Of a stretch of 64,000 nucleotides of DNA, positions 914 through 24,927 are shown piece after piece; position 1 is the stretch's first letter; each line of letters begins with the position of its first letter. The notes under the pieces are model-generated. The model was not told the DNA's origin and searched no databases. It worked only from the letters and a program-made list of their open reading frames with translations. Origin of the DNA: Balanoglossus misakiensis (lineage: Eukaryota > Animalia > Hemichordata). Location: NCBI GenBank assembly GCA_040954595.2, contig CM082578.2, positions 7,549,519-7,613,518 on the forward strand. The letters are read 5' to 3'. The position numbers and the translations under genes are program-made.

Positions 914-1576
914 CAGTCCCGTTCACTAGTACATACCCGAGACGAAACAGATATTTCAGAAATCTGAAGTCCTTCCTGTATATTTTGGACACATGATAAA
1001 ATGTTTGTCAATGCAGACGACCCCACGGGATGTTTTATGAACTTAAAAATAGGCACACAGTTATGATATGAATAGACACTGTCTCAAGTTGTCGAATTTG
1101 TCTTTTTCCATAGGATTACGTTTGCTAGAGACCTATTGACGTTTCTGCACATAGCTCAGCCGCTAGAAACTACATGTATATGGTCACCAACGGTGCCTAC
1201 TTAATCAAGTCATCTTGTAAGGATTGTGTCTATATGACAACGACTTGTTTCATCGTCCCAAATCTAGAACAGCAACCACAATATTTTGATGACAGTTATA
1301 CAGAAGTTTTGACAAGCAAATAACTTTTGCGCATGCATTCATGTATAAAAGTACATATGTACATATTTTGAGTTTTAAAGATCACCATTGTTTGCAATAT
1401 TCATAATTATACTATACATGCAAACATGAATGTAAATATGTATATATCTGTAGCTATTTGTCATTTTTATGTGTATATAATACATATCAGGAATATATAT
1501 CTTATTGAGAACGTGTCACTTTTAATAGAGATTAATATAATTGATGTGTGGTTATTGAAAATAACTCGTAAAGTTA

Positions 1577-1582
1577 TTTATT
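1577..1582 (-). terminator. Candidate poly(A) signal AATAAA downstream of H1
   Basis: tttatt on + strand, about 105 nt 3' of the histone stem-loop; the AT-rich context makes a chance match possible. Confidence 0.4.
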
Positions 1583-1666
1583 AATGAATTAAAACTGTTA
1601 CATTTTAACCCCTTGTGTGTACTCTGATGTCATGCGTGTGTGTGTGTGGTACATGTGTATCTGGTA

Positions 1667-1675
1667 TTCTCTTTC
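1667..1675 (-). terminator. Histone downstream element (U7 snRNP site)
   Basis: GAAAGAGAA on - strand, 12 nt 3' of the stem-loop, with the canonical purine-rich AAAGAG core. Confidence 0.75.
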
Positions 1676-1687
1676 GGAGGATGTGGT

Positions 1688-1703
1688 GGCCCTGAAAAGG
1701 GCC
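1688..1703 (-). terminator. Histone 3' stem-loop
   Basis: - strand reads CCAAAAT-GGCCCTTTTCAGGGCC-ACCACA: 6-bp stem, 4-nt loop, canonical flanks, 24 nt after the H1 stop. Confidence 0.95.
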
Positions 1704-1727
1704 ATTTTGGTTTGGATTTAAGTATCT

Positions 1728-2342
1728 TTACAAACATAACTTCCTGGTGGCCTTCGATTTCTTGGGTCCCTTGTTGGTCGACTTCTTTGTTGAAGGTTTC
1801 TTCGCTGATGTCTTTTTCACCTTGCCTGTCGTTTTAGTTTTCCCCGTTTTCTTGGTAGATGTCTTGTTTGTCGTTTTCTTGGCATCTTTCCCTTTCTTCG
1901 CTGTCTTCTTCTCTTTTGGTTTAGTGGCTGACGGTTTGCTTTTCTTGGGTTTCTTGGCGTCCTTCGCTTTCTTGGGCGATTTCTTCTCCTTTGGCTTCTT
2001 GACCGTTTTCTTCTTCACCGGTGCCTTCTTCTTGGCGGGTTTCTTCTTGGGCTTCTCTGTCAGCTTGCCAACTCGCAGACGACCGGTTGCTCCCGTGGCC
2101 GTCGAGCCTTTGGGACGAACCAGTACGCCTGAGTCTAGGCCAGCTTTCAGAGCGCGGCGGAGGTTGGCGGTCAGATGAGACGGACTGACGGTCGGGTAGT
2201 GAGACAGGATGAACGCCTTGATGGCCTGAACAGAGCTTCCCTTGGTGTCTTTTATGGTCTTGATGGCTTCGACCACCATCTCCAAAGTCTTGGGATGAGT
2301 TGGAGCTGCTTTTGGCTTCTTGACTGGAGCGGATTCTGCCAT
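1728..2342 (-). CDS. H1: Linker histone H1, 204 aa, intronless
   Basis: Winged-helix globular domain PTHPKTLEMVVEAIK...GSSVQAIKAFI...LRRALK...GATG, then a Lys/Ala/Pro/Thr-rich tail; histone stem-loop in the 3' UTR. Confidence 0.95.
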   Translation of the reverse strand: MAESAPVKKPKAAPTHPKTLEMVVEAIKTIKDTKGSSVQAIKAFILSHYPTVSPSHLTANLRRALKAGLDSGVLVRPKGSTATGATGRLRVGKLTEKPKKKPAKKKAPVKKKTVKKPKEKKSPKKAKDAKKPKKSKPSATKPKEKKTAKKGKDAKKTTNKTSTKKTGKTKTTGKVKKTSAKKPSTKKSTNKGPKKSKATRKLCL

Positions 2343-3895
2343 TGCGAAGACGAGTTGGTCACTAGTAATGCACAGTGAAGTGTGGTGTGCAATCCAATTC
2401 AGCGCTGTAATTATCCCCTTCTTGCGAACGTAGGAGAAAACAGTTGTGTGAATTAGGGACGCTGTGACACTTTTTTCTCACATTCGACAGAAGTTGTCAT
2501 TATTCTGAAAGAACGGACTATTCTCCATTGTGAACACATCGCAAAAGTGTGAATCACCGACGCGTTCCAGCGTCAAAATATTTCCTCAGCGGACTTGTGT
2601 GACCTATTTTGGGGGAAAAACCGTTATTGGAATTGAAAACTGAAGTAGAAAGAATGCCCATTGATTCTGGGATCGGATTAATGGTCTTCGACGAAGTTGC
2701 ACACACAGTCATTCCTGCGCGGAGTGACTCTGTTGCACATTACCGAAAGTGTCGTCGAGGGCGGTATCCCGGTGCCAGTGTGAGTCGAGGTACATACTTA
2801 TTCCTGCATGCAAATGCTACATGCTACCGTTAACATTTTATGTCGACGTTTGAGAGAAATTCAACAAGAAAATCGGGGAGACGCGTAAATAGGTACTAGT
2901 ATATCATTAATTGTCTGTTAAAGCACCATAGGTTCTACTATGGATAACCCGTTATCAGCCAAAGTTGTGTTCGGGTCTGACAAAACTTTCAAAATCCAGT
3001 CGGTTGACGTCTAGCCACAAAAAAAAAAGAATGACACACATGACTGCGTTTTCACAACTAGATATAATGTTGGCGCTCTTTCTGTCAGTGACCTACTGGC
3101 ATACCCTTCATCTTTCCTGGGAGAATAGGAACACCGCCATTCCAAAAAGACACAGAATGTGTTTCAACCTGTACATCTATTGAGCCTGGTCGTTATCCGT
3201 TTTATTTATCACCGATGCACTTGCATAGTCTTATAAACTCTTTTTTTGCGCATCCAGCCATTTCATTTTATATTTTCTCCGTGATTTGTGTCTTCTATTT
3301 GTCCATGTGTCTGTGAATAATTTTATGTCCACCGGCAAACATGCTAACGAGATTCACTGTAAAAGTGCAAATGCCAATAAGCGTGAAGGTCACGGCGGGA
3401 GGTGGGGATTAACAGCACCGCCCCACTCTCGATTTTACACAGCGGACAAGGGATTCAACGTTATCAACCAAGGGTCTCACAGCCGGCCCTGCAGATGGCG
3501 CACACCGTCCATATTTAAATTGGTCGTACATTTACAAGGAGACCGTTCGTTAGAAAATGCAATATCCAATTCGCTCTTGTAACGACGGTGTGTTTGTGAC
3601 GACCTGCATTCACAATGAAGTCGTTCAGCCGGGCGTTGATTCTGTAATATTGACAGTGTTTGCAGTGAGATATACCCTACAGACTTACGTCACGACCTTC
3701 GTCGGCTGATTTCGACGGGGTCACATATTTCACACTTACCTGTCGCTCTCTATTCACAGGCCAACACCCAGATTTGTCAAGTGCAATGCGCTGAAATACC
3801 TCCAAAACGAAGTGACAAAAGTAAAGCTCTTTGGGGGGAATAATTTCCCGCTACACACGTAAGTGCCATGAAACTGCTCCGCCAGAGAACAAAAA

Positions 3896-5749: not shown

Positions 5750-7597
5750 CTAGTCGTCTGGGAAGCCGGTCTGTGCGTGTGTGTTCACCATCCGCGGCTT
5801 TTCTGGATAATAATGCGCTTCTTCCATTTCCTTCTCGTCGGGCTGATATCCCTTGTTCAGTTGTGCTTTCAGGCCACCCGGGGATTGGTATATGAACCCC
5901 TTTTCCTTGAAGACGAGCCGCTTGAAAAACCAGTAGATTACGACGATGAGGATGCCCTCGCCAAGCGCCACCAGACTGTGCACCAACGGCACGATCATCA
6001 TCTCGCCCACGGCCATGCCGGAACTGCGCCCCGTCAGGATGAGCAGATTGATGAGGCTGAGAGCCAGGGCGCCGTTCTGGATGCCGGTCTCGAAGGCGAT
6101 GGTGCGGCACTGGAACTTGTTGCGTCGGAAGAGCCAGGCGATGAAGTAGCCCAGCGCGAAGGCGCACACGGGGTAGATGGCGGCGACAGCGTACGGGTGC
6201 CACGTTGTGTCGAAGACGGGTCTGAAGGCGATGATAGAAATGACGGCGAAAATAAGGATGCCGATGAGCACGATAACGTTCAATACCTAGAAGGCAAAAT
6301 TTTGACCCCGATTAACAAAAGCATCCCCGTGGCGTCGTCATCGTCGTTGATGATTATGCAGTTGTTGTTATTTATTTGTTTGATTTTTGTTGTTGTTGTT
6401 GTTGCTGCTGCTGCTGCTGCATTTATTCTGAAATCCCACCCCAATTTAACGTTTGACAGAAAGAGACAGACAAATATGTCAAAATTGAGCGACTTTGTCC
6501 CCAAGTGATTACACACGGGGAATTTTAATGAACTTATAGTCCGGCAACCTTGCCATGTTTAGTCAAGAGTTTTCTAACCAAATTGTAATAGTTTAAATTC
6601 CTATTCCAGTTCTCCCCCTATGTATATATTTGCAAAGATCCTTACCGCAGCGACTTTGTATGACGCCTTTGGAGCTTTCCATCGGATCACCATTCCGATC
6701 CAGACTGGGACGAAGAGAAGCACCAGCATGATGATTATGTCTCGTGTTTGCGGCAACACCACATCCGAGATGGCGATCCAACTTTGGGAGTAGAGGTAAA
6801 TACACCACGGCATCATACCTATACCCAGGATGTTAGACGCTGTCGTCATGCACACGCTGTGGATAAAAAAAATAGGGGGAGGACATTGAAAAATAATGCC
6901 TTCTTCCATCTTATAAAATGTAGGGGAGTTTGAAAGCCGTGTTGATGAAGTCCATTAAGTCGACACAACCTAAAATGGCACTGGCATATTTTACTGACTT
7001 TCAGTCTGGGAGCCATTCCTCACACGTGAAAATGACCATATAAGAACCGTTTTTGTTCAAACATGCGCATTTTCAATTTGCTCTGCGCTGTGATTCGAAA
7101 TGGCCACAACTCAAGTCATTTCCTTATAATAAGATTTTATTTTCTCTACGCACTATCTGCGAACAATTCTTTCCAAGAAATCCTCCACCCACCCTCAGAA
7201 AGTAAATGCCTCGCCCTTACCTTAGCGTGGTGTCGCCCTCCGTCCAATACGTGAATATATTCGACGCCAAGCCGCCCGGACAGCACGCCACGATGATGGT
7301 GCCCAGCGCCATGTTCGGCGTCAGTCTGAAGATGTGCGCCAGGGCGTATCCCAGAGTGGGCATGATGCCGAACTGGCAGAGCGCGCCCACGGTGATGGCC
7401 ACCGGTCTCCTGGCGATCTGCTTGATCTCGCCCATGGTCATGGTGCACCCCATCGCTATCATGCATATGAACAGCGTCAGGTTGATGAGGATTTGATTTC
7501 CGAGGACGAGATTCAGCGGCGGGTTGAACCCACCCGTCGGTGGACCGGTTGCGTTGGCGCTGGTCATGTTGTACGCGGCTTCTGTCGTTTCATCCAT
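5750..7597 (-). CDS. SLC10A2-like: SLC10 sodium/bile acid cotransporter (ASBT-like), paralogue A, 374 aa; coding exons 7597-7221, 6856-6646, 6286-5750
   Basis: Motifs MGCT, CQFGIMP, CCPGGLASN, EGDTTLSVCMTT, RTIAFETGIQN. GT-AG introns in phases 2 and 0; 377+211+537=1125 nt. N-terminal sequons NMT, NAT. An acceptor tttctgcAG 2 nt before the ATG implies an upstream UTR exon. Confidence 0.92.
6388..6420. repeat. Compound (TTG)n(CTG)n microsatellite
   Basis: Directly visible in intron 2 of SLC10 paralogue A. Confidence 0.85.
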
Positions 7598-8630
7598 GGC
7601 TGCAGAAACTGAGGGGCAAAAAAGCGAGTCTTTTACTACTCTGGGTGAAAGGTCAAAATACCTTCCACGTATTCAACCATCGAGCAAATTACTTGGCGTT
7701 TGATGTCAAAAGCATCCAAATATCTGCCTTGCTCTGCTCTGCGCTACCAACCACCATTACCCTGCACTGCAAAACCTTCTCTCGCACCCCTCGCCACTTG
7801 TTAGCAGTAACATGTACAGTTGTAGGGGTTTCTAAAGAGTACACCTGGGGTTAATCAGAAAGGCCAGTGTCTTCCCCTGAATGACTGGTTGAACATAGCA
7901 TCACTATATATATTAGGGTCACATTCCAAGAAAACCCAAATTCCACCTAGGCATAGACACACATTTGTGTCTGGATATTTTGGGGTCTGTTATAACCTAT
8001 ATATTGTTTGGTGAGTACACTTTCGAAATAAAGGTTAATACAATGGATATACATGTGTATAAAAGCACAGCACAGGTGTGTGCGTCATATGACCTTATTG
8101 CCGTCGGGCTCTGCACCACATTTTATCCTTTGTAGAGAAAGGAAATTGCGAATTTCAAAGCAAAATCCAGTTATTAAAGCACACCGAGTGCTTGACTGAG
8201 TTTCCCGACCAAGTATTGTATAATCATTTGAGCGAAGCTACTTTTTCCACCAAACCCATTTTGTCACGAACTCCAACGATGTAACACAACCGGGCGTTTG
8301 CACTCCTATACCTGCCAATGTCCCGCCATGCATGTCTCACCAACAAAATGGTGGAGACACGGGGCCGTAGGGTGTGTAGGGTGACCCAGAGACACAATAC
8401 AGGTAGAGCGGAGGCGTGGGACGAGCCGTGAAAGAGACGACGATTAAAAAGGGCCAAGTCAAAACTGGTGAGAGAGCTGAGAGGGTGCGAGATTGGACAA
8501 GCCAACTATATGTACAATGTAATAAACGTCTACAGTCTGGGAATGATATAAAGCAATATTCACGGAAACAGCGCAGCAGAAATTCGCACTATTGCAGAAA
8601 ACCGAAAACGTGGAGCAGACTACATCGGGA

Positions 8631-11813: not shown

Positions 11814-12949
11814 GTTAGTAACCATTTTCGGGCGATTTAGAAACTTTTAAGAGACCATTGATCTTTCGCAAAGGAAATGTATACGCTGGGGAGGGATTGA
11901 TCCTCTTAGTATTCAGCTATTTCTTATACTTAGCTGAGTTTAACTTCTTGGGAAATTAAATTAACAGCAGACTTTTCTATGGATTGAAAAACTTTCTTTG
12001 TTGTGTACACTCGAGTGAGGGCAGCACTTGGCGACATACTTCGGAGTCTTACAATGACAAACGTCTCCCTTGCAATGTAAACACCCTTCATTGTTCGATG
12101 ATCATCACAGTGTCACCGACTTTCGAAATCAGCAATATTTTACCGGTAAAGTGGAGCCGCATAGTTTATTCGACCCAAGTCCCGCATACTGGGTTCGCGA
12201 GGCACGGCACTGGTAAATGTTTCCATGGGAACGTGTATGTTTTGTTGTCACGTCTGCGTACGTTCCGCATGAATGACAAGTCGTGTAAGCGAAATTGTGT
12301 TCGAGCGCGGTCCCGGTATCACGTTGTCGAATAAAAAAGGCAGTGAAAGGGGCGCTATTAACCACACCTTGAGAAAAGCAATCACATGAGCTTCGTTTCT
12401 AAAGTTGTAATCAGAATCTAACGGGAGATGGGAATACCTCATAACACATGGTGGAGAATCCGGGTAGACGAGAAAAATCCAACGGAGACAGAAACGGCGA
12501 CGTCCAGCGGAGGGACAGCACCATGGCTGGCGACGTGTTAAAAGACACGAATCAATCAAGTATCGGAGATATGACAGTTTACACTCAGAGGTCGAGATAA
12601 TAGTAAAGTGGGACAGAATGCACACCGATGGTGGAAGAACTATCCAGACTTTGCTGGTTTAAGCAATGGTCAGTCGAGAAACAGCTCAAAGCAGTCGGGC
12701 TATATTTGACTGGTGAAGCGGAACGATGGTACTTTATACATGCAGACGTTAATCAGTAATCAGTCAGTCCGAATTTATGGGTGGCATGGCAGTCAAAATC
12801 TAAACTAATTTAAAATAATTGTAATATCAGAAAAGTGCAGTTATTGCATGTTGGAGGTGACCCCACCCCATAAGAGATAGAGATGGGAGCGAAGTTTTTT
12901 TTTAAGTTATTCACCGACTGCCTTGTCTTTACAGAGCTTGCTAGAAAAG

Positions 12950-13375
12950 ATGGCGGACGCCGGAAACGACACCAACTCGACGGCAGCCCCGGAGATGGCA
13001 CCTTCCAAATTACTCATCGCTAATCAAGTTATCATCATCATCACTTTGGTCGTTATGATGTTTGGGATGGGAGCAACCATTACGCTCAGAGAGGTGTGGG
13101 AGAACTGCAAGAAGCCGATCGGCCCAGTCATTGGTATATGTTGCCAATTTCTGATCTCGCCCTTTCTCGGTTGGTCGCTGGCGATGGCGGTCGACCTCCC
13201 CCCAGCCGCGGCAATCGGTGCTCTGGCCATCGCTACGTGCCCGGGTGGCACGTTCTCCAACGTGCTGACCTATCTCACCGACGGAGATACCTGTCTCAGG
13301 TAAAAATCGACTGTTGTCTATTATCATGACTCGTCGCTCAATAATTGCCGGTGTATTACAATGATGATGGTGTTG

Positions 13376-13407
<32 letters not shown>

Positions 13408-13418
13408 GGTGGTGATGG

Positions 13419-13464
<46 letters not shown>

Positions 13465-13465
13465 A

Positions 13466-13562
<97 letters not shown>

Positions 13563-15018
13563 CGACGACCACGTACATGGTAGAAGTGAGTAGCAGTGGT
13601 TATGAACCATGCATGTTGGCATCATATTCATTACATGCAAATCCTCTTTCCGTTTTCTCCCACAGCATTGTGATGACCACTTTCTCCACGTTCTTCGCCA
13701 TCGGCTTCATGCCCCTGTGGCTGTTTGTCTACAGCCGCAGTTGGATCGACGCTGCGGCAGCCTTGCCCTACAGGGACATAATCATCGCCCTGGTTCTGAT
13801 TCTCATTCCCGGAGGTCTGGGAATGCTGGTCAAGTGGAAGTTGCCCAAATACTCCGACAAGACAGCTTTGGTATGTTCCGGGGAGAGCGATGGGGTGAGA
13901 GAGAGAGAAGGGGGGTTGAGAGAGAGGGGTGAGAGAGAGAGACAGAGAGAGAGAAAGAGAGAGAGACAGACAGACAGAGCGAGAGAGACAGAGAGAGAGA
14001 GAAATGTGTGACCAAAACATGAACAAGTATTGTCCGTCAATACACACATTACAACGTTATTTGTGGCGTGGTGCCGTTGAAATTGTCCAGCAAGGCGACT
14101 ATCAGATAAATTTTGATCTTGTGAGGATGTAAAGAAAAGAAAAAAGGTTTCGATCACTGAAAAAGAGCTTAACCGTATCCAATGATTTATCTGTTAATTT
14201 GTTCCGCGAATGTTAATATTGTTAATGGATAATATATAACGTGTTTGTCTTCATACTGTCTATAACAAAATTGGCCTTTTAGATCAATATCTTTGCACGT
14301 GCCATGTCCAATCGAGATTCGGTCGCTTCGATAGGGCTGTGTAACCCGGTGTGTAACCTGCTGATGACGTGGTGGCCTGAACTAACCCAACCTAACACTT
14401 TCGGGTTTGTTTGATTTACAGGCTTGCTCCATTTTCACTTTGATCGGAATCACTGTCACCCTCGTCCTCATCGGTTTCATGAATCCGCTGATGTTTAGCT
14501 CGTCGTGGAGACCATACATCGTCGGCTTCTTCATTCCCTTCCTGGCCTTCGGCTTGGGCTACCTCATACCCTGGGCGCTGAGGCAGAGCCACAAGAAGTG
14601 TCGCACGATCTCCTTCGAGACGGGCATCCAGAACACGGCGCTGGCCCTTGTCGTCCTCAACCTGGCCGAAATACGCAACCAACAGGGCGGCCTGGCCTCG
14701 TCGTTGACGAGACTCGTGCCGGCCTTACAGGGGCTGTTCAGCTTCCTGATTGGCATGACGGTCATCTGCGTTTACCTGGCGTACAAGAAATTCTACAAGA
14801 AGGGCCAAGTCGGCCCCGAAGAAGACGCAGAGGCCGTGAAGGAAGGAGAGTCCCACGCGGCGTCCGGCGGCGACGGCGGAGTCGTGAACGAAGGATACGA
14901 CGCGGAGGATGGCGAAACCACAGGCGTCGATGCCCCGGAAAAGACGAAGGGAGACGGCGACGTTGAAAATCACGAGGGCGCAGCCAGCAGCGAAAACGCA
15001 AAGGAAACCAATCAATAA
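12950..15018 (+). CDS. SLC10A2-like: SLC10 sodium/bile acid cotransporter (ASBT-like), paralogue B, 383 aa; coding exons 12950-13299, 13666-13870, 14422-15018
   Basis: Motifs MFGMGAT, CQFLISP, TCPGGTFSN, DGDTCLSIVMTT, RTISFETGIQN. GT-AG introns in phases 2 and 0; 350+205+597=1152 nt. Sequons NDT, NST; acidic C-terminal tail. Confidence 0.92.
13362..13569. repeat. Compound triplet microsatellite (GTT)n(GGT)n(GAT)n(GAC)n
   Basis: Directly visible in the first coding-region intron of paralogue B; source of the spurious poly-D/M/I/S ORFs. Confidence 0.95.
13897..14002. repeat. Imperfect (GA)n/(GACA)n microsatellite
   Basis: Directly visible in the second coding-region intron of paralogue B. Confidence 0.9.
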
Positions 15019-17400: not shown

Positions 17401-17551
17401 CATGGTATTCAGCCTTTGCGTGGCTCTGTCTGTCTTAACCCTTTTGACCAGTTCAACTCCATATACGCACTCGCTATCGCTCGTGCGTATATGTCGTGAA
17501 CTGGTCAAAATCTCGTGATATACCATGGCTGGGGGTGTTTTATTGCTTAAT
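17401..17551. mobile_element. Short nested-hairpin interspersed element, unclassified (Crypton-like by resemblance only)
   Basis: Inverted pairs 17401-17408/17520-17527, 17442-17455/17497-17510 (14 bp perfect) and 17460-17470/17483-17493 (11 bp perfect). Confidence 0.5.
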
Positions 17552-17860
17552 TCTTTCAGCGTGCAATTATAATTAAGATCATAGTGTGTTGGCTTCTGCT
17601 AGATTCACATGATAGGTTAAAGAAAGCCACGTATATATAACCACAATAGAAATTTCAGAAGTACCTCCCATGTCAGGTATACGTGTTCGATTTGGATACT
17701 CTTTCTAACTCGTGTGGATGCATTAAAATACATGTATATTTAGTGTGAACCTTGGCAGATGTCTGGCAATTAAAATTCTTCAGTTCAATTGGTGCGGAAG
17801 AATGCCTGGGCCTACAGTAACATGCAGAAGTATACAAGTTGAGGCGAGCTGTGTGCCAAT

Positions 17861-18265
17861 TCATTGGCCTATCAGGTCTTCCTTTGCTTTAATCAGATTA
17901 GCTCTTAGGTAGTAGTCAGCTCTGACAAGTTTGATGTTATTGACTGCCAACTTCTTTTCAATCCCACCGGCTAGCTTTGTCACAGGAAGTACTACAAAAA
18001 TACCACCGGAAGCCCTCGTCCTCTTCATGTAATCTTTCAGCTGTTGAAACTCTGTGTCGCCTATTTTGGACGTAGTGTAGTGTTTCACTTCGATGACGAT
18101 GCGGCGTCCTCCGCAAATGATCATGGTGTCGGGTCTTTTGGTGCCCACAATTACCTGACACACCGTCCGACAGCCAGGGAAAGCCTTGCCTGTTTGTTCG
18201 CAGACATGCTTTTGGAATTCCCAGGGGTCCATATCCTCTAATTCTTGACAAGTCTTTGCCGACAT
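17861..18265 (-). CDS. Restriction endonuclease-fold PD-(D/E)xK protein, Mrr_cat/NucS-like, 134 aa
   Basis: Starts at ATG 18265 (context AAAATG): MDPWEFQKHV helix, R-P45-D46, IVI-E59-V-K61-HY, Q75-L-x-x-Y79, ASGGIFVV strand, NNIKLV. Uninterrupted frame; acceptor-like ttgtttgaattccAG 3 nt before the ATG. Confidence 0.8.
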   Translation of the reverse strand: MSAKTCQELEDMDPWEFQKHVCEQTGKAFPGCRTVCQVIVGTKRPDTMIICGGRRIVIEVKHYTTSKIGDTEFQQLKDYMKRTRASGGIFVVLPVTKLAGGIEKKLAVNNIKLVRADYYLRANLIKAKEDLIGQ

Positions 18266-19234
18266 TTTCTGGAATTCAAACAATATTTAACTTACAGTAC
18301 AGTACCTGGTTATCACATTCCATAGCCTTACATGTAGAATTTTTGAGAGAAACGGTGTTACTATAGTGTCATTTTATTGAAATGTTCACATAAAGGTGCC
18401 TAAAGAGGAATAGTAATAAATGATATAAAGAGAACACTATGTCACCGCGCTTGATTTTTTTTTTATTGAGCTCTTCAGATATTTTCACCATAAGAATACT
18501 AAGTATAGCATTAGGAGCGCCAGAAAATGCTGAATCAACACAAGTTTCCACAATTTTGAGACCCCTAACTAAAAAAGTAGGATAGAAACACGTACCCCTT
18601 TTCCTCTTTTTTATACTTAAAATTTATTGATCAAAAGAGCGTACTATAGACCCTGTTCGTGATTCGATTTTCAAATTACGAACTTCAATATCAACATATG
18701 ATTCCAATCTCTCGATTTACTCGACATTTTTGAAAGTGACTGCTTTATATGGTTTGTTACTTGATTTTATGGCACTGCCGTCCACATCGAATTTGTTGGT
18801 CTCGAAATAGATGAGAATTTCACTTGGCCGCAGGTAGCCACGGTTTATATTCTTTTCATTTGAAAATTTTGTCTGGATATTTTCATTTAGAAAAACCTGA
18901 CTTTTTCTACAGTCAAACATTCAATGGAAATAAAACGGTCATTTTAAAACTAAACGTGACACCACTGAACAACCAGCTGCCACTGCATGAGCATACGAAG
19001 CTCTTCCTCATTGTTTTTAGTGTGTATTTGTTGCTATATTTGATCGTTTTATAATTTTAATGGTATTTTCCTGTTTGTTTGTTTATAGAAGAAACTGGAA
19101 ATGCACTTGTTAAAGATACCACTCTTGGCATATAGAGAGTTATCGAAAGACATGTATTTAATAACGATAAAAACATTATTCATGCAAAACGACATTTTCC
19201 CCTCGACTCATTAGCATGATAAAAAAAGTGCACG

Positions 19235-19393
19235 CACTTCCACGTCACAACGAACAGAAAATGACGTAGTAAAATTTGCATATGGAGGCGTAACTGCGAT
19301 CAAACTGAGCATTTGCCGGCTTTACAGTTTCACTTCCTCATTGTTCCTGTTGACGTATATTAACTGTCAATCATTTTACAGGGGCATTTTCCC
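19235..19393 (-). promoter_or_regulatory. Cluster of ETS-IRF, kappaB-like, octamer and CRE half-site motifs upstream of the nuclease ORF
   Basis: GAGGAAGTGAAACT (19326-19339, - strand), GGGGCATTTTCCC (19381-19393), ATTTGCAT (19274-19281), several TGACG half-sites. Motif match only. Confidence 0.35.
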
Positions 19394-19425
19394 ACAGTGC
19401 CCGTGTGAGGGCGAAACAAGGTATA

Positions 19426-19577
19426 ACAGTCCCTCGGGCCACGCCCTCCGGCCTTACGGCCATCGCACCACGAAACGCCGAATCGGGGCTTAGGCCCTCA
19501 AAAGATACGGGCCATACGGCCCTCGCACGAAACGCCGGATCGATACACATTAGGCGCGAGGGACTGTCGACAGTCTA
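19426..19577. mobile_element. Truncated hairpin/TIR element ending ...GACAGTCTA
   Basis: ACAGTCCCTCG (19426-19436) / CGAGGGACTGT (19557-19567) inverted pair; internal direct repeats TACGGCC and CACGAAACGCCG. Confidence 0.5.
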
Positions 19578-19846
19578 ATGCCAACATGAATTTAAGGTAT
19601 TTGGCCCAATTTGGGGCCCTTTTTGGTATTAATAAGCACGTTATCATATTTTGTATTTTTGCTTTGTTTCACACCCGGCATGTCCAGTAGAAGTAAAAGA
19701 GACACATTACTTACTTTTGTTTCTTTACTTGGTCCACATTTCCCACGACTCGCGCACTCTGACATTCCGTCTATCGGTGGAGTTTAACTGAAGTGAAATT
19801 ATTTCAACTGTCAATACACATGTGCATATGCCTATATGCAAGTATT

Positions 19847-19911
19847 TAGTCTCGGTTACCCAGACTCTCTTACTCTCGTCTTCGGAGGGCGCTGCGCGAG
19901 AAAGAGAGTCT
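19847..19911. mobile_element. Truncated hairpin/TIR element starting TAGTCTCG
   Basis: AGACTCTCT (19862-19870) / AGAGAGTCT (19903-19911) inverted pair; the right terminus is missing. Confidence 0.4.
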
Positions 19912-21188
19912 CCATTCCAGAAACTTCATGAATGTTCTAACAGGGTCTAATCAATTCCAACTTGACATTCGAATGACCTAGAATATTCTCAAAGTTTCTA
20001 AGTAACATTCCAATGTACAACAACATGTAAACTACATCACAAGTTACTACAAACTGTAAATATAAATATAAATATAATAACGAAATAACAATGTCTTGTG
20101 ACAAGGTCAGTCCACGCTACCACCGGCCAGTCTCGTCTCCTTCTGATCTGTTAAAAAAATTTATAAACACATTTTCTTTTCTGTTTTGGTTCTGAGACCT
20201 AACGCTTTTTCAGAGGAATGTTCCCCCTCTAAGAGGATTTTTTAAGCTCTGTTTTTTAGGGTGAGGTCTTAAGGCAGTCTTTATCATGGTCCATGTATCC
20301 GAACAGTTGTACTATTGTTGTAAAAAATGTGGGTGGTAGCGTAGCCACACACTGTAAAAAATTGTGGTTCATTGTTAAATAGCTCAGGAGAAGAGACAAC
20401 ACAGACTGGTTCCCTGTCTCCTTTCTAACGCATAATTGAAATTGCTCCTGTATACTTTTCGAATAACAAGAAAAAGTCACATGTATTTAAATTATATTAA
20501 TACTGTCAAAAATACTGAATAGATAAGCAGTAGATTAAGAAAATAGTTGCAAAGATTGTCTCAGTACATTGTTTTTGAGAAATATGTGTCTATAAAAGGG
20601 GTTGCCTGTCTGGTGCCTTCTACAGTGCTTTGTACTATACTAGTTATTCAGGGGCTGACATACTATTGACTTGTTTGTTGTTTTTTTTTGCATGAACCAC
20701 CCACTGATAATCTGATGGCTAAAAAGTGTTTCAATTTGCCATGGTAACAGTGGTTGGAGACAGGCCATATTTGTTAATTCAGAATGTGACTGCCAATCTC
20801 AGACTGCTGTTGGAACACTGTCCACCTTAATTATCTCTCTGTCCAATGGGCCGCGACCATATATCCATCCATTACAAATCTGGTGACCACAACTGCAGCA
20901 TTTGAACAATAGATCCTGTTAGTAGTATGTGTATGCAACCCAGAAAGAGTGGTTTATCACAGTGTATTTCAACAGTTTCCATGCCTAAGTGGGTTTTTTA
21001 GGAGTGATGTTTTCAAACTGCTCTTCTGGGAGCACATGTATTCTGGTACAGCAAACATATCATGTCTCCAAAGTTCACAATGGATGTAGTGGTAGCACAC
21101 ATTATTGCCTACAAATATCAACTCCTTAAAAAACAGTCCAATCTTCTGAACAAACCGCACAGACCACAATTAAACTTTCATAAAAACT

Positions 21189-21194
21189 TTTATT
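21189..21194 (-). terminator. Candidate distal poly(A) signal of PKA-RII (3' UTR about 3.6 kb)
   Basis: AATAAA on - strand followed by G/T-rich sequence; another candidate at 24039-24044. Confidence 0.4.
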
Positions 21195-22894
21195 CAATTA
21201 AAACTGAGGCATTGTTGAAATTGGTCTCTTTGTCAATTAAATATCCTCTAATATTTAACAATGAATGGTGTTCCAAACAGCCAAAGACAGATGTCAACTT
21301 ATCCATCAAAGTTCAAAACTTTTGAAAAATCAAAAAACATCTCAGAAACAGATATTTTTACATAAGAAATAATAACAACTGTAGCAATAGCTGTGAGAAC
21401 ATCTTTTTTTGTCTTATTATTTTTAACTGGAAGATTCTCTTCCAAGATACTATTAAATACCACATTTGGAGGTCTCATTAACATGGGTTATCTATCTCAG
21501 AACGCAACAGGCACAGGGCAGGTCGGACATAAGTTCTGTTGAGGGCAGTTAGGCAGATTTTATACCTCCACCGCTAAAGACAGGTTCTGAAGTGAACCAA
21601 GAAAGATTCGCCAGAAGAGGGCGCTCTCCACGCCTCCCCTCAGAGGACAGGCATATGGGTCAGCCTTTGATATGAACTTGTCGCCCACTCGGAATCAGAA
21701 TCACTTTTGTCGGTTACAAACTTCTGAGCTAGGTAAACCATGTAAAGAGCGTCATCTCTAAACACGGCATGTCTTAGTAAATTTGCCTCGAAAGCAAGGC
21801 GTTACTTCCAGACAACACTGGAAAATTTCAGAGAGAGAGAGAGAGAAACACTCCCACTTGAATACTACAACTGTGGAGATCGCGAGAACAACATGTGAGA
21901 CTGTATTTACAAATAACTAGAACACCAACTTTGGAGAACCTGAACATTTTTTTTTTGGAACTTCAGAAATGTGTACTTAACAGTAAAAGTCTGCTGGAAA
22001 CGTGACCAGACAACCTCAAGAGAATGGTTTGACTGTAACCATTACACAAATATTCACATTTTTAGTGAGAAACTAAAACAGCATTTTCTTGGCTAACATT
22101 TTTTGCAGCATACAAATACAGGTGATTGAACAATTAACCTTCGCTCTTTGACCCTTGTGACCTGGGGTGACATTCAGTTGAATTTCGCTCTGTTTTGCCC
22201 GTCATCCCCCCATTTTTAACACACTGAAATATTCCAATTGTTGTCTCTTCCAGGATAGCCTATACCACTAGAAACTAGGGGAGCACATGTATTCTTCAGG
22301 ACTGCAGGGATTTACAAAAATTTAAAACCGCTTACAGAAATGTGGTAGAACCCCAGATACAATTGGACTATGACACATGTACATGAACCCCAAATGTGGG
22401 TAACACTGATTGATTGATCTGATTGACTGATTAAAAAAGGACTTCTTTGTCAAAATACAAAGTTCACAATGGAAATAAGCACCCGTTATTTTTTTTTTTT
22501 CAAAAGAAGTACAGAGAAACAAAAAACAACAACAAATAAATAAATTCAGAAATAGAAATGCAGCAAATAGTAGTCCAAGGTAAAATGCTTTGGAGGGACG
22601 TCCAGAAGCTGTGCTAGTAGTGCCAACCCCTACTACAGAATGGGAAGAGCCAGTCTGCTGTGGGACTGTTCCACCACGCTCTGCCAAGAGGGGTTGACAA
22701 GTCAGCACTGCGTTACTGCCATGTATAATAAAGTTACACAAACGCGGTGATAGAAGTCGTGTGGTTTGGAAAACTGACAACTTGGACTGACTGGCGAGTG
22801 CAAAGTTTTGAACAGACAGTGGTTGTTCCACCCTACGACCACTGCTCATATGATTATTAAAATAAAGCAACGAGAGGAGCTGGATTAAACTTGA

Positions 22895-22997
22895 CCCTTT
22901 CACCCCCCCCCCCCCCCCCCCCCCCAATTTCTCTGTCTACGAGTCCAATCCTTAGAAGAAAACAACAGGACCGGACCAACACAGGGCAGTGAAAGGG
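22895..22997. mobile_element. piggyBac-like mini-MITE, degenerate copy
   Basis: TTGA-CCCTTTCAC...GTGAAAGGG-TTAA; same termini as 25033-25118. Confidence 0.55.
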
Positions 22998-24793
22998 TTA
23001 AGTTACAGCTAATGTAATGGTGTTGTTTTTTTGCAAATGTGTAAAGACTATATAACATTGAAAAATTCACTCTGTGTTGGAAGTTGCTGCCCCTCTACTG
23101 ACCTTAAATGTCAAAGTTCAAAGGTCAACACTTCACAACCCACAACGAATTTTCCAATGCCAACGTGAACGACAAGCCTCCAACTCAGACACTGACTTTG
23201 TATGGGAGAAAGCTGTGACTCAAAAACAAAAGAAATGACCAAATATTTACAAATAGTAAAACCATGCTTGTTGGCATTGCACTTCATATTGTGAATAGAT
23301 ATTCTGGAGAGAGAAAAAAACAAGAAAATTAACCAAAAAACAAAACAAAACAAAAACCCCTGAACTACTGTACCTTTTACAGGACTGTACATTTTATAAA
23401 ATATAAAATATTTGGCAATATGAAACGCCGTAACTTGTACACTGTGAAAATCTCTACACTGAGTCTAAGATGAATTGGAATTACGGGAGCTGCAAGGTTG
23501 CCATCTGCTTGTTTGTTGTCGTTTTTTTTCTAAGAAATTATCTTTCAGCATTCGTGGAAACATCTTGTGATGTTCTCTCTGTTTAAAACACATTGTGTTG
23601 ACACAAATCAATCGATTGACCACGCTACTGTATGTTAAATTTTACTGCCCTACATACAATAGTTATGCGTTTGTATCATTTGGGGAATGAGAGTACAGGG
23701 GTATAAATGGGGTGGACATCAGAACCTGAACTTTAACCTTTTGCACCCTGACCCACCTATGACATCACCCAAAAGTATTCTTCCAATCCGGGCTTGAATG
23801 GATTAATACTGGTTGAAGTCAGCCAACAGAATGGCCCATGTCGCGTAAAAACGTAAAATTATATATATCTATCAGCAGATGGCAACTTTGCCCCTCCACC
23901 CATTAACCCTATCACACCCACAACTCTGGTCTAGTCCGATGCCATGTTTTCCAATGGTGTGACAGGACCAACATAAAACGTGACAGGGCTATGGACACAC
24001 TTTTTTCAAAATACCATCACGTATACAAAGCTGAAAAGTTTATTGACTTGTTGAGTTTGGCTGTGCACTTGGAATTGGAAGCATATTGTGATCAAAACTG
24101 ACATTTTTGATCTCTATATTTTCTCACCCACCAGAAGAGAGAATTCTTACCCCTACAAACGAGAAAGTCGATGTAAGAAAAAAATCAGAATAAGGTTTCA
24201 GTGGCTTGGCGGGCGACATGCTGTTACAGCAACTGCATTTTGATGATTAAATTTCAATTACAAAATAAATCGAATAAGTTTTGATGGAGATTGTAAAACG
24301 ATAATTCCCCAAGACACCTGAACTTCTTGACAACTGCTGTGTTGCTGTCGGTAATAAATAAAAAATTTATTTTTTTAAACACTAAACATCTACCTGTTTC
24401 AAGTGTTGACATTTCACATATCAAACGATTGATTGTATTTTTGCAGTGTACTACACAATACCTAACTTACAAGTCAAACTTTATTTCTCCTTTAATTTTT
24501 TTAAACTTGAAAAATGCACAAATAGTCAACTTCATGCATTGGCAATTGACCTGTGGGTATTTTATTACAATACTACATGCATTCAGATGGACAAGTTAAT
24601 TAAAAACCGGTGGTTTTTCTTTTATGCAAAGTGGAAATTATTTACAGTGTTGTCATTTTGAGGTCTGTTGCTTATCATGTTTACAGCAGCACAGCAGCCG
24701 AGTTTATTTCAGATTGGCAGTTTTTGGTTGTCGTTTTTTTTCTCTTTTTCAGAATGCTTCCTCCATCCCCCCTCGGTCGGTGTTCGGTCGGTT

Positions 24794-24927
24794 TTATGAT
24801 CGGGCGTCGGAGAGATCTATGCTCTTGCCAAACAGCTTGACCAGCTGGTCTTCGTAGTTGCTGATGTTCCTCTTCATGACCTCCATGCAGGGGCCCAGAA
24901 GCCTCTCAAAGGCCGCAACGTCAATGA
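24794..24927 (-). CDS. PRKAR2: PKA-RII exon 13 (terminal)
   Basis: (F)[33 protein letters not shown]...*; 134 nt. Confidence 0.95.

Follow-up and report, generated by a model that had tools for sequence, protein, structure and literature searches.

A stand-alone Mrr_cat-profile reading frame with relatives in acorn worms and a predicted PD-(D/E)xK nuclease fold

Described restriction-fold nucleases and the reading frame

Nucleases of the restriction type are characteristic of prokaryotes; where animal proteins adopt the restriction fold, most are ancient housekeeping enzymes or components of transposons. PMC3424549 defines the PD-(D/E)xK superfamily by its order of helices and strands. Mrr and MspJI combine a PD-QxK site with a winged-helix or SRA recognition domain (PMC12707154), and NucS, according to PMC5290159 and PMC11109965, requires an N-terminal domain besides its C-terminal RecB-like one. 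On the eukaryotic side, the PMC5290159 supplement gives NucS-CT-like regions in Amphimedon, Trichoplax, Ricinus and a glomeromycete, mostly within DUF1016, and the Cyanophora MutS1 carries an Mrr_cat-like tail that is probably inactive (PMC12292046). A bare Mrr_cat-type domain with conserved catalytic residues, standing alone in three invertebrate genomes, including those of two deuterostomes, would add a case of bacterial defence chemistry being reused, and raises the question of how cells restrain a nuclease without a recognition domain. A literature search, with most subscription papers outside it, returned no description of the family reported here, and the available parts of PMC8195603 and PMC3417536 hold nothing on it. 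The sequence family is already in RefSeq, unnamed and with an automatic Pfam tag, and is not new to databases; as a stand-alone restriction-fold family in animals it is real, and apparently undescribed as a conserved nuclease family.

The window, by which we mean the whole 64-kb stretch of DNA analysed, is animal DNA rich in introns and depleted of CpG in a mosaic pattern, and the reading frame under study lies between two gene ends as follows.

14386–15018, plus strand: last exon of an SLC10 gene, convergent with the open reading frame (ORF); the first exon of this gene matches SBF.
17861–18265, minus strand: ORF for a predicted single-domain PD-(D/E)xK nuclease, with D46, E59, K61, Q75 and Y79, and with Q18.
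24794–24927, minus strand: last coding exon of a PKA-RII gene, complete, with its stop at 24796–24794; the gene runs from about 57.4 kb.

The ORF reads from ATG to TGA (18265 to 17861) over 134 aa with zero internal stops, has a predicted product of about 15 kDa and is present in the window in one copy; the preliminary description, which saw in it an intact frame amid ordinary animal genes, thus holds, with SLC10/SBF and PKA-RII on its flanks. Every residue of the motifs named there was found in the translation, namely P45-D46, E59-x-K61 (E59-V60-K61), Q75-L-x-x-Y79 (Q75-L76-K77-D78-Y79), DPWEFQ in the N-terminal helix (D13-P-W-E-F-Q18) and GIFVV (G88-I-F-V-V92). The GC3 of the ORF is 0.52 versus 0.63–0.82 for neighbouring genes, which is consistent with low expression or weak selection. 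An exact-sequence look-up in a protein collection found neither the ORF product, nor the shorter form starting from M12, nor the histone H1 encoded in the same window.

Relatives, profile matches and predicted fold

An exhaustive phmmer search of 1,835,955,588 representative proteins at E ≤ 0.001, in line with the search for animal relatives that had been proposed, returned exactly two related proteins, both from acorn worms (enteropneusts) and from different families: XP_070533042.1 of Ptychodera flava (160 aa, 45% identity, E 4e-19) and XP_077997015.1 of Glandiceps talaboti (139 aa, 37% identity, E 9e-14), the identities extending across almost the full length. Both are RefSeq-type models annotated as 'uncharacterized protein' with an automatic PF04471 tag, and each forms a single-member cluster and lies on a contig of 41 Mb or 21 Mb. 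An alignment-based protein search over 1,143 candidates gave only the same two proteins again, and a word-index protein search with the single sequence (2 near-length candidates and 71 longer ones) gave no relative. Nothing was found among the phmmer representatives in echinoderms, amphioxus, Saccoglossus or other animals, and these missing matches may reflect loss, divergence or absent annotation. The figure of 370 million years given in PMC4729200 refers to Saccoglossus versus Ptychodera and not to the Ptychodera–Glandiceps split.

The three proteins share 33–44% pairwise identity, and both homologues are single-domain proteins of 139–160 aa whose C-termini fall within about one residue of the ORF end, which bears out the stand-alone architecture claimed earlier. 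All five of D46, E59, K61, Q75 and Y79 are unchanged across the three aligned sequences, compared with 26 invariant columns in 132 overall (P about 2e-4, or about 3e-4 when restricted to polar positions); these five polar residues had been named before the homologues were found. P45 and L76 vary. Because the homologues are single-domain, end at the same point and keep all five residues, it is unlikely that the ORF stems from contamination, arose by chance or is a piece of some larger protein. At the level of sequence, the comparison points to an old, lineage-restricted animal family, and, with gene models in two acorn-worm families on the large contigs mentioned, the ORF is very probably a real gene retained in an animal genome, as had been proposed. 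Four cysteines of the ORF product (C22, C32, C36 and C51) align with cysteines of the Glandiceps protein and suggested a candidate metal or disulfide site, but the Ptychodera protein has zero cysteines.

Pfam Mrr_cat (PF04471) matches the ORF product with 24.5 bits against a gathering cut-off of 21 (E 3e-5), and all three proteins score above this cut-off (24.5, 24.6 and 25.9 bits). Four further families of the PD-(D/E)xK clan match the ORF product at E 0.007–0.05, and Hjc at E 0.16. As background, 55 other ORFs of the window were scanned, making 56 with the nuclease ORF; these comprise 41 of the 58 ORFs of at least 100 aa plus 15 shorter ones near the nuclease ORF, the 17 omitted being other frames over or beside the H1 and SLC10 exons, or microsatellite frames. 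Real families were recovered for 4 of the 55 (histone H1 and three SBF exons), weak matches for 5 and nothing for 46, with the best spurious match at E 0.012; the Mrr_cat match of the ORF exceeds chance. The profile search that had been suggested came out in part: Mrr_cat was found above its cut-off, and a NucS family was missing from the Pfam and NCBIfam scans. Scans with NCBIfam, PADLOC and PHROGs gave weak matches or none, the PADLOC CARF_PDDEXK profile matching the Ptychodera protein weakly at E 0.001; sequence searches of the PDB gave nothing significant (best E 0.11), and an Rfam scan of the window gave zero matches.

AlphaFold2 modeling with the three-sequence alignment gave a model with pLDDT 85.2 and pTM 0.81; the single-sequence model (pLDDT 38) was unusable. 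The predicted elements are helix 14–28, strands 33–36, 47–51 and 54–61, helix 70–82 and strand 87–92, which is the helix–strand order that defines the PD-(D/E)xK superfamily. In this model D46 precedes strand 47–51, at the start of strand 2, and E59 and K61 lie at the end of strand 54–61, which is strand 3, so that both an Asp at the start of strand 2 and a Glu-x-Lys on strand 3 are present, invariantly in the three proteins. Submission to Foldseek, one of the checks proposed beforehand, recovered the restriction fold with seven PDB matches at E ≤ 0.001, all of them AF1548, EndoMS/NucS or MspJI chains. A VIA structure search against 48,161 chains was headed by VC1899 (Z 12.2, rmsd 3.1, 128 residues aligned), followed by Can2 (Z 11.4 and 11.1), AF1548 (10.7), LlaBIII, Cdn1 and FokI (all 10.2), the BspD6I small subunit (9.9, 129 residues aligned), AspBHI (9.8), MspJI (9.4) and NucS (8.6–9.1); a further comparison gave similar values. 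Of the fold first claimed, Mrr/NucS-like and of the restriction-endonuclease type, the general part is upheld by the Mrr_cat match, the confident model and Z scores of up to 12.2, and the specific part, Mrr type IV or NucS, is not. As judged from the model, assignment to the PD-(D/E)xK superfamily is secure and assignment to a subfamily is not.

The Ptychodera protein has its own Atlas model (pTM 0.75), whose partners include clusters of Mrr_cat, TackOD1 and Card1. The top Atlas cluster is the same for both queries (131 aa, 63 members, scores 0.95 and 0.92, TM 0.72 by target) and carries PF13366 on 54% of its members, with taxa unrecorded. The listed Atlas neighbours with recorded taxa are bacterial, archaeal or viral, which by itself is no sign of transfer.

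Eukaryotic proteins also occur among the fold matches (FASTKD4, Z 8.7, and RPB5), and Table 1 of PMC3424549 includes eukaryotes in the Mrr_cat/DUF2034 group with transfer left unresolved. Both would fit vertical descent of the ORF as a very diverged member of a eukaryotic PD-(D/E)xK family (DUF2034/RRG7, RAP or the RPB5 N-terminal domain). Prokaryotic nucleases, however, rank above these matches (Z 10–12), homologues were found only in acorn worms, and the Pfam families DUF2034, RAP and RPB5 are unmatched by all three proteins; PF10356 (DUF2034/RRG7) is absent at E ≤ 10 for the ORF and at E ≤ 1 for the homologues, in searches whose HMMER filters discard weak matches. We regard vertical descent as very improbable.

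The acidic residue on the first core helix, which a subset of superfamily families has, is replaced in the ORF by Q18. The preliminary description had pointed to EFQ at a site where Glu is usual; Q18 is indeed read there, and the helix carries F-E-K in both homologues versus F-Q-K in the ORF, so that Gln18 is most likely derived in the ORF's species. E23, on the same helix, is invariant in the three proteins. Gln18 may weaken the enzyme of this species, and a further reading would be that the family is a nuclease family of which this copy is weakened or inactive, being left with nucleic-acid binding only or beginning to decay. The exchange of Glu for Gln and a GC3 below that of the neighbours speak for such a copy, but the 134 codons are intact, D46, E59, K61, Q75 and Y79 are retained, the model is confident, and the helix acid, although it often joins the active site, does so only in a subset of families (PMC3424549). 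A weakened copy is for us a decidedly unlikely reading.

Gene structure and genomic surroundings

The following minus-strand signals and strandless regions surround the ORF.

17539–17544, minus strand: candidate polyadenylation signal AATAAA, about 320 nt beyond the stop.
18266–18290, minus strand: candidate 3' splice site, a sequence signal with its AG at 18270–18269, followed by one Lys codon.
18269–19714, minus strand: candidate phase-0 intron of 1,446 nt, with a GTAAGT donor at 19714–19709.
19715–19765, minus strand: candidate first coding exon of 17 codons, opening with an ATG at 19765 and sharing the reading frame of the ORF.
19231–19380, no strand: words resembling CRE, octamer and Ets sites, clustered together with a single Ets-IRF composite; a candidate promoter or first-intron enhancer.
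18600–19950, no strand: CpG-undepleted zone with an observed/expected ratio of 1.13, versus 0.43 for the PKA-RII 3' region and 0.69 for the ORF.

The acceptor-like AG, the GTAAGT donor and the AATAAA noted at the outset are all present, as sequence signals, where they had been placed. In a tblastn comparison, similarity to the Ptychodera homologue sets in exactly at 18268, directly after the acceptor AG. Under a generic donor matrix, the donor comes first among the 189 GT sites of the interval 18330–21200 and is on a par with two donors of PKA-RII, and the 17-codon exon is in frame with the ORF, which luck alone would give one time in three. At its N-terminus the Ptychodera homologue carries a basic extension of 23 aa that ends at the equivalent point and shows no significant alignment with the candidate first exon, whereas the first residue of the Glandiceps protein corresponds to the ATG at 18265. 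This ATG has an A at –3, and may not be the true start; two candidate forms, one of 152 aa from two exons and one of 134 aa, are plausible. From 15000 to the ORF stop, the minus strand has no AATAAA other than the one at 17544–17539.

The same signals bear on whether the ORF is no more than the terminal exon of some longer gene, such as an alternative end of PKA-RII, or else an assembly artefact. PKA-RII, an identity assigned by its motifs, lies on the same strand, and a phase-0 acceptor stands immediately before the ORF's ATG. PKA-RII has, however, its own complete last exon and stop, so that the nuclease ORF is not needed for its completion; both homologues, moreover, have annotations as short, self-contained proteins, placed on contigs of chromosome scale, and the protein search returned no longer forms, which is weak evidence. 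We consider this reading extremely improbable.

The region 19231–19380 holds three CRE words, an octamer, two Ets words and an Ets-IRF composite (1 of 4 in the window), and is the densest 150-bp stretch of the window when a panel of 10 motifs is applied, with 7 matches against 5 for the next, the panel having been chosen after some motifs had been seen by eye, and some matches overlapping. It may be a promoter or enhancer of the nuclease gene, which would hint at immune control. CpG ratios are 1.19 at the PKA-RII 5' end and 0.43–0.53 in its body, and a separate transcription unit at the undepleted zone gains weak support from these values, since the intergenic DNA downstream of the ORF is also at 0.9. 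Gene-body methylation was considered for a CpG dip at 17540–18600 (27 observed where the flank rate predicts about 38; P 0.035, with limits set post hoc) and dropped, the signal being too weak.

Several other features of the window were recorded. CpG depletion on the PKA-RII strand runs about 4.5 kb past the stop (20200–24790, minus strand), which suggests a long PKA-RII 3' UTR that would end near an AATAAA at 21189 or beyond. A near-perfect 70-bp palindrome at 17440–17512, about 30 nt beyond the AATAAA (DNA hairpin of –25 kcal/mol, z –11), is probably a small hairpin repeat element; a weaker hairpin (z –3) a little way upstream of the candidate first exon, at 19845–19915, resembles a truncated palindromic repeat, and a GC-rich patch with short inverted ends at 19390–19580, inside the candidate intron, has by eye the look of a non-autonomous repeat fragment. 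An intronless linker histone H1 gene of 204 aa lies at 1728–2342 (minus strand, Pfam E 2e-22). Two compact SLC10/SBF genes stand head to head at 5750–7672 (minus strand) and 12881–15018 (plus strand), both with GC3 of 0.69–0.82 and undepleted CpG, the introns of the latter containing a GA repeat as well as a long trinucleotide repeat of the ATG type. The longest ORF of the window is 290 aa.

Origin, proposed role and comparison with known systems

Predicted viral structures match the model strongly, led by phage restriction endonucleases and with giant-virus proteins included (best E 6e-8), and algal giant viruses carry stand-alone PD-(D/E)xK genes of about 126 codons (GxxExxY, Table 1 of PMC12085832). 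Both would suit a cargo of viruses or mobile elements, inserted independently in each genome rather than domesticated once. Viral, genome and metagenome locus searches, IMG/VR, phage and plasmid records included, nevertheless gave no relative. Near the ORF, clear element ends or convincing terminal repeats were not found, transposase, reverse transcriptase and viral families are absent among the 56 scanned ORFs, there is no second copy in the window, and the ORF is flanked by splice-like and poly(A)-like signals. Cargo is thus quite improbable in our estimate.

One domesticated gene whose family was acquired is what we prefer. Derivation from a prokaryote or virus is likely; this transfer we infer because the animal range is narrow, the structural neighbours are prokaryotic and viral, and no eukaryotic family is matched. 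No prokaryotic or viral sequence aligning across the whole domain was found in the protein and locus searches. An archaeal 417-aa Mrr_cat protein, picked out by a pattern, was rejected as donor, only 38–39 residues being matched (probability 74%), and a phage tblastn match (E 0.5), on the strand opposite to the annotated gene, was set aside as chance. The archaeal protein (1258–2511, plus strand, of its own locus) has an E-x-K-type Mrr_cat domain after about 200 aa of repeated, unassigned basic sequence, and the gene convergent with it presumably encodes an S-adenosylhomocysteine hydrolase. Deuterostome genes that marine microbes also have are documented in PMC4729200, with transfer or repeated loss as explanations.

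Our leading reading, put forward tentatively, is that the ORF encodes a single-domain, metal-dependent PD-(D/E)xK nuclease, taken long ago from a prokaryote or virus, that would cut foreign or aberrant DNA with low specificity. Following family chemistry, D46 and E59 would bind Mg2+ or Mn2+ and K61 would stabilise the transition state, with the DNA backbone held by the basic surface expected from the pI of 9.0–9.8 of all three proteins (the ORF product and those of Ptychodera and Glandiceps). Lacking a winged-helix, SRA or CARF domain, such an enzyme would show hardly any sequence preference in nicking or cutting unless it is held in check by a partner, on which the catalytic-only R.BspD6I small subunit likewise depends, by localisation to a compartment or by inducible expression. 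With a product of this size and two natural homologues that differ from it at one active-site position (E versus Q), the family is a cheap test system.

Judged by analogy, defence against viral or transposon DNA would be the most likely role, since the structural neighbours are mostly defence nucleases and evolution has been fast and patchy with the active site held. Invertebrate immune effectors are typically expanded families, and the single-member clusters of the homologues, unlike such expansions, are a point against defence. A fuller scheme, an arm of restriction-like innate immunity in which acorn worms and this animal's lineage would have kept a bacterial-type nuclease for hundreds of millions of years as an inducible antiviral or anti-transposon cutter, switched through the upstream Ets-IRF and CRE sites and aimed by a partner or by DNA methylation, we regard as unlikely.

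The single copy in the window and the single-member clusters would equally suit a domesticated nuclease with a housekeeping or developmental job, be it in repair, in the processing of RNA or of particular DNA structures, or in the programmed degradation of DNA. The fold matches include EndoMS/NucS and Hjc, enzymes of repair or junction resolution, and the Ptychodera extension is K/R-rich and, judged by eye, resembles a nuclear signal. Set against this are the restriction to acorn worms among the representatives, the patchy and fast evolution that 33–44% identity reflects, and the missing N-terminal domain of NucS; a housekeeping job is in our view somewhat unlikely.

The low-specificity nuclease that we favour can be set beside the described systems as follows. 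Mrr, MspJI and AspBHI, and EcoKMrr too, resemble the ORF product in their Mrr_cat score and their fold (Z 9.4–9.8; LlaBIII Z 10.2). They differ in that all three proteins of the ORF family have E-x-K where Mrr and MspJI have Q-x-K, and in that the ORF domain fills residues 1–134, with winged-helix and SRA domains absent; modification dependence has no basis in the ORF because no such domain is present. Can2, Card1, Cdn1 and VC1899 give the top structural scores (Z 10–12 over 126–128 residues, at 10–14% identity), but the ORF product has no CARF sensor, and the alignment covers the nuclease half, from about chain residue 158–170 onward. Other restriction-fold enzymes score close to these, so the models do not show a special kinship to Can2/Card1.

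A Q-x-x-x-Y helix is typical of RecB/NucS and is common to the ORF and NucS/EndoMS, which takes Foldseek ranks 2–5; the alignment spans chain residues of about 126–238, and the N-terminal DNA-binding and dimerisation domain of NucS is missing in the ORF. The NucS-CT-like eukaryotic proteins differ from the ORF family. GxxExxY proteins (PDDEXK_3, PF13366) are like the ORF in size, in their stand-alone form and through the top Atlas cluster, but the first helix of the ORF lacks the motif, PF13366 scores 15.8 bits versus a cut-off of 22, and NCBIfam gives no match of this kind. The R.BspD6I small subunit, finally, is a functional analogy: it too is a nuclease domain without a recognition domain, and its partner is a cognate large subunit whose gene lies beside its own. 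No partner gene for the nuclease ORF is evident in the 64-kb window. Rather than a member of Mrr, MspJI, NucS, Can2/Card1 or GxxExxY, the ORF product is, by its sequence, an Mrr_cat-profile protein.
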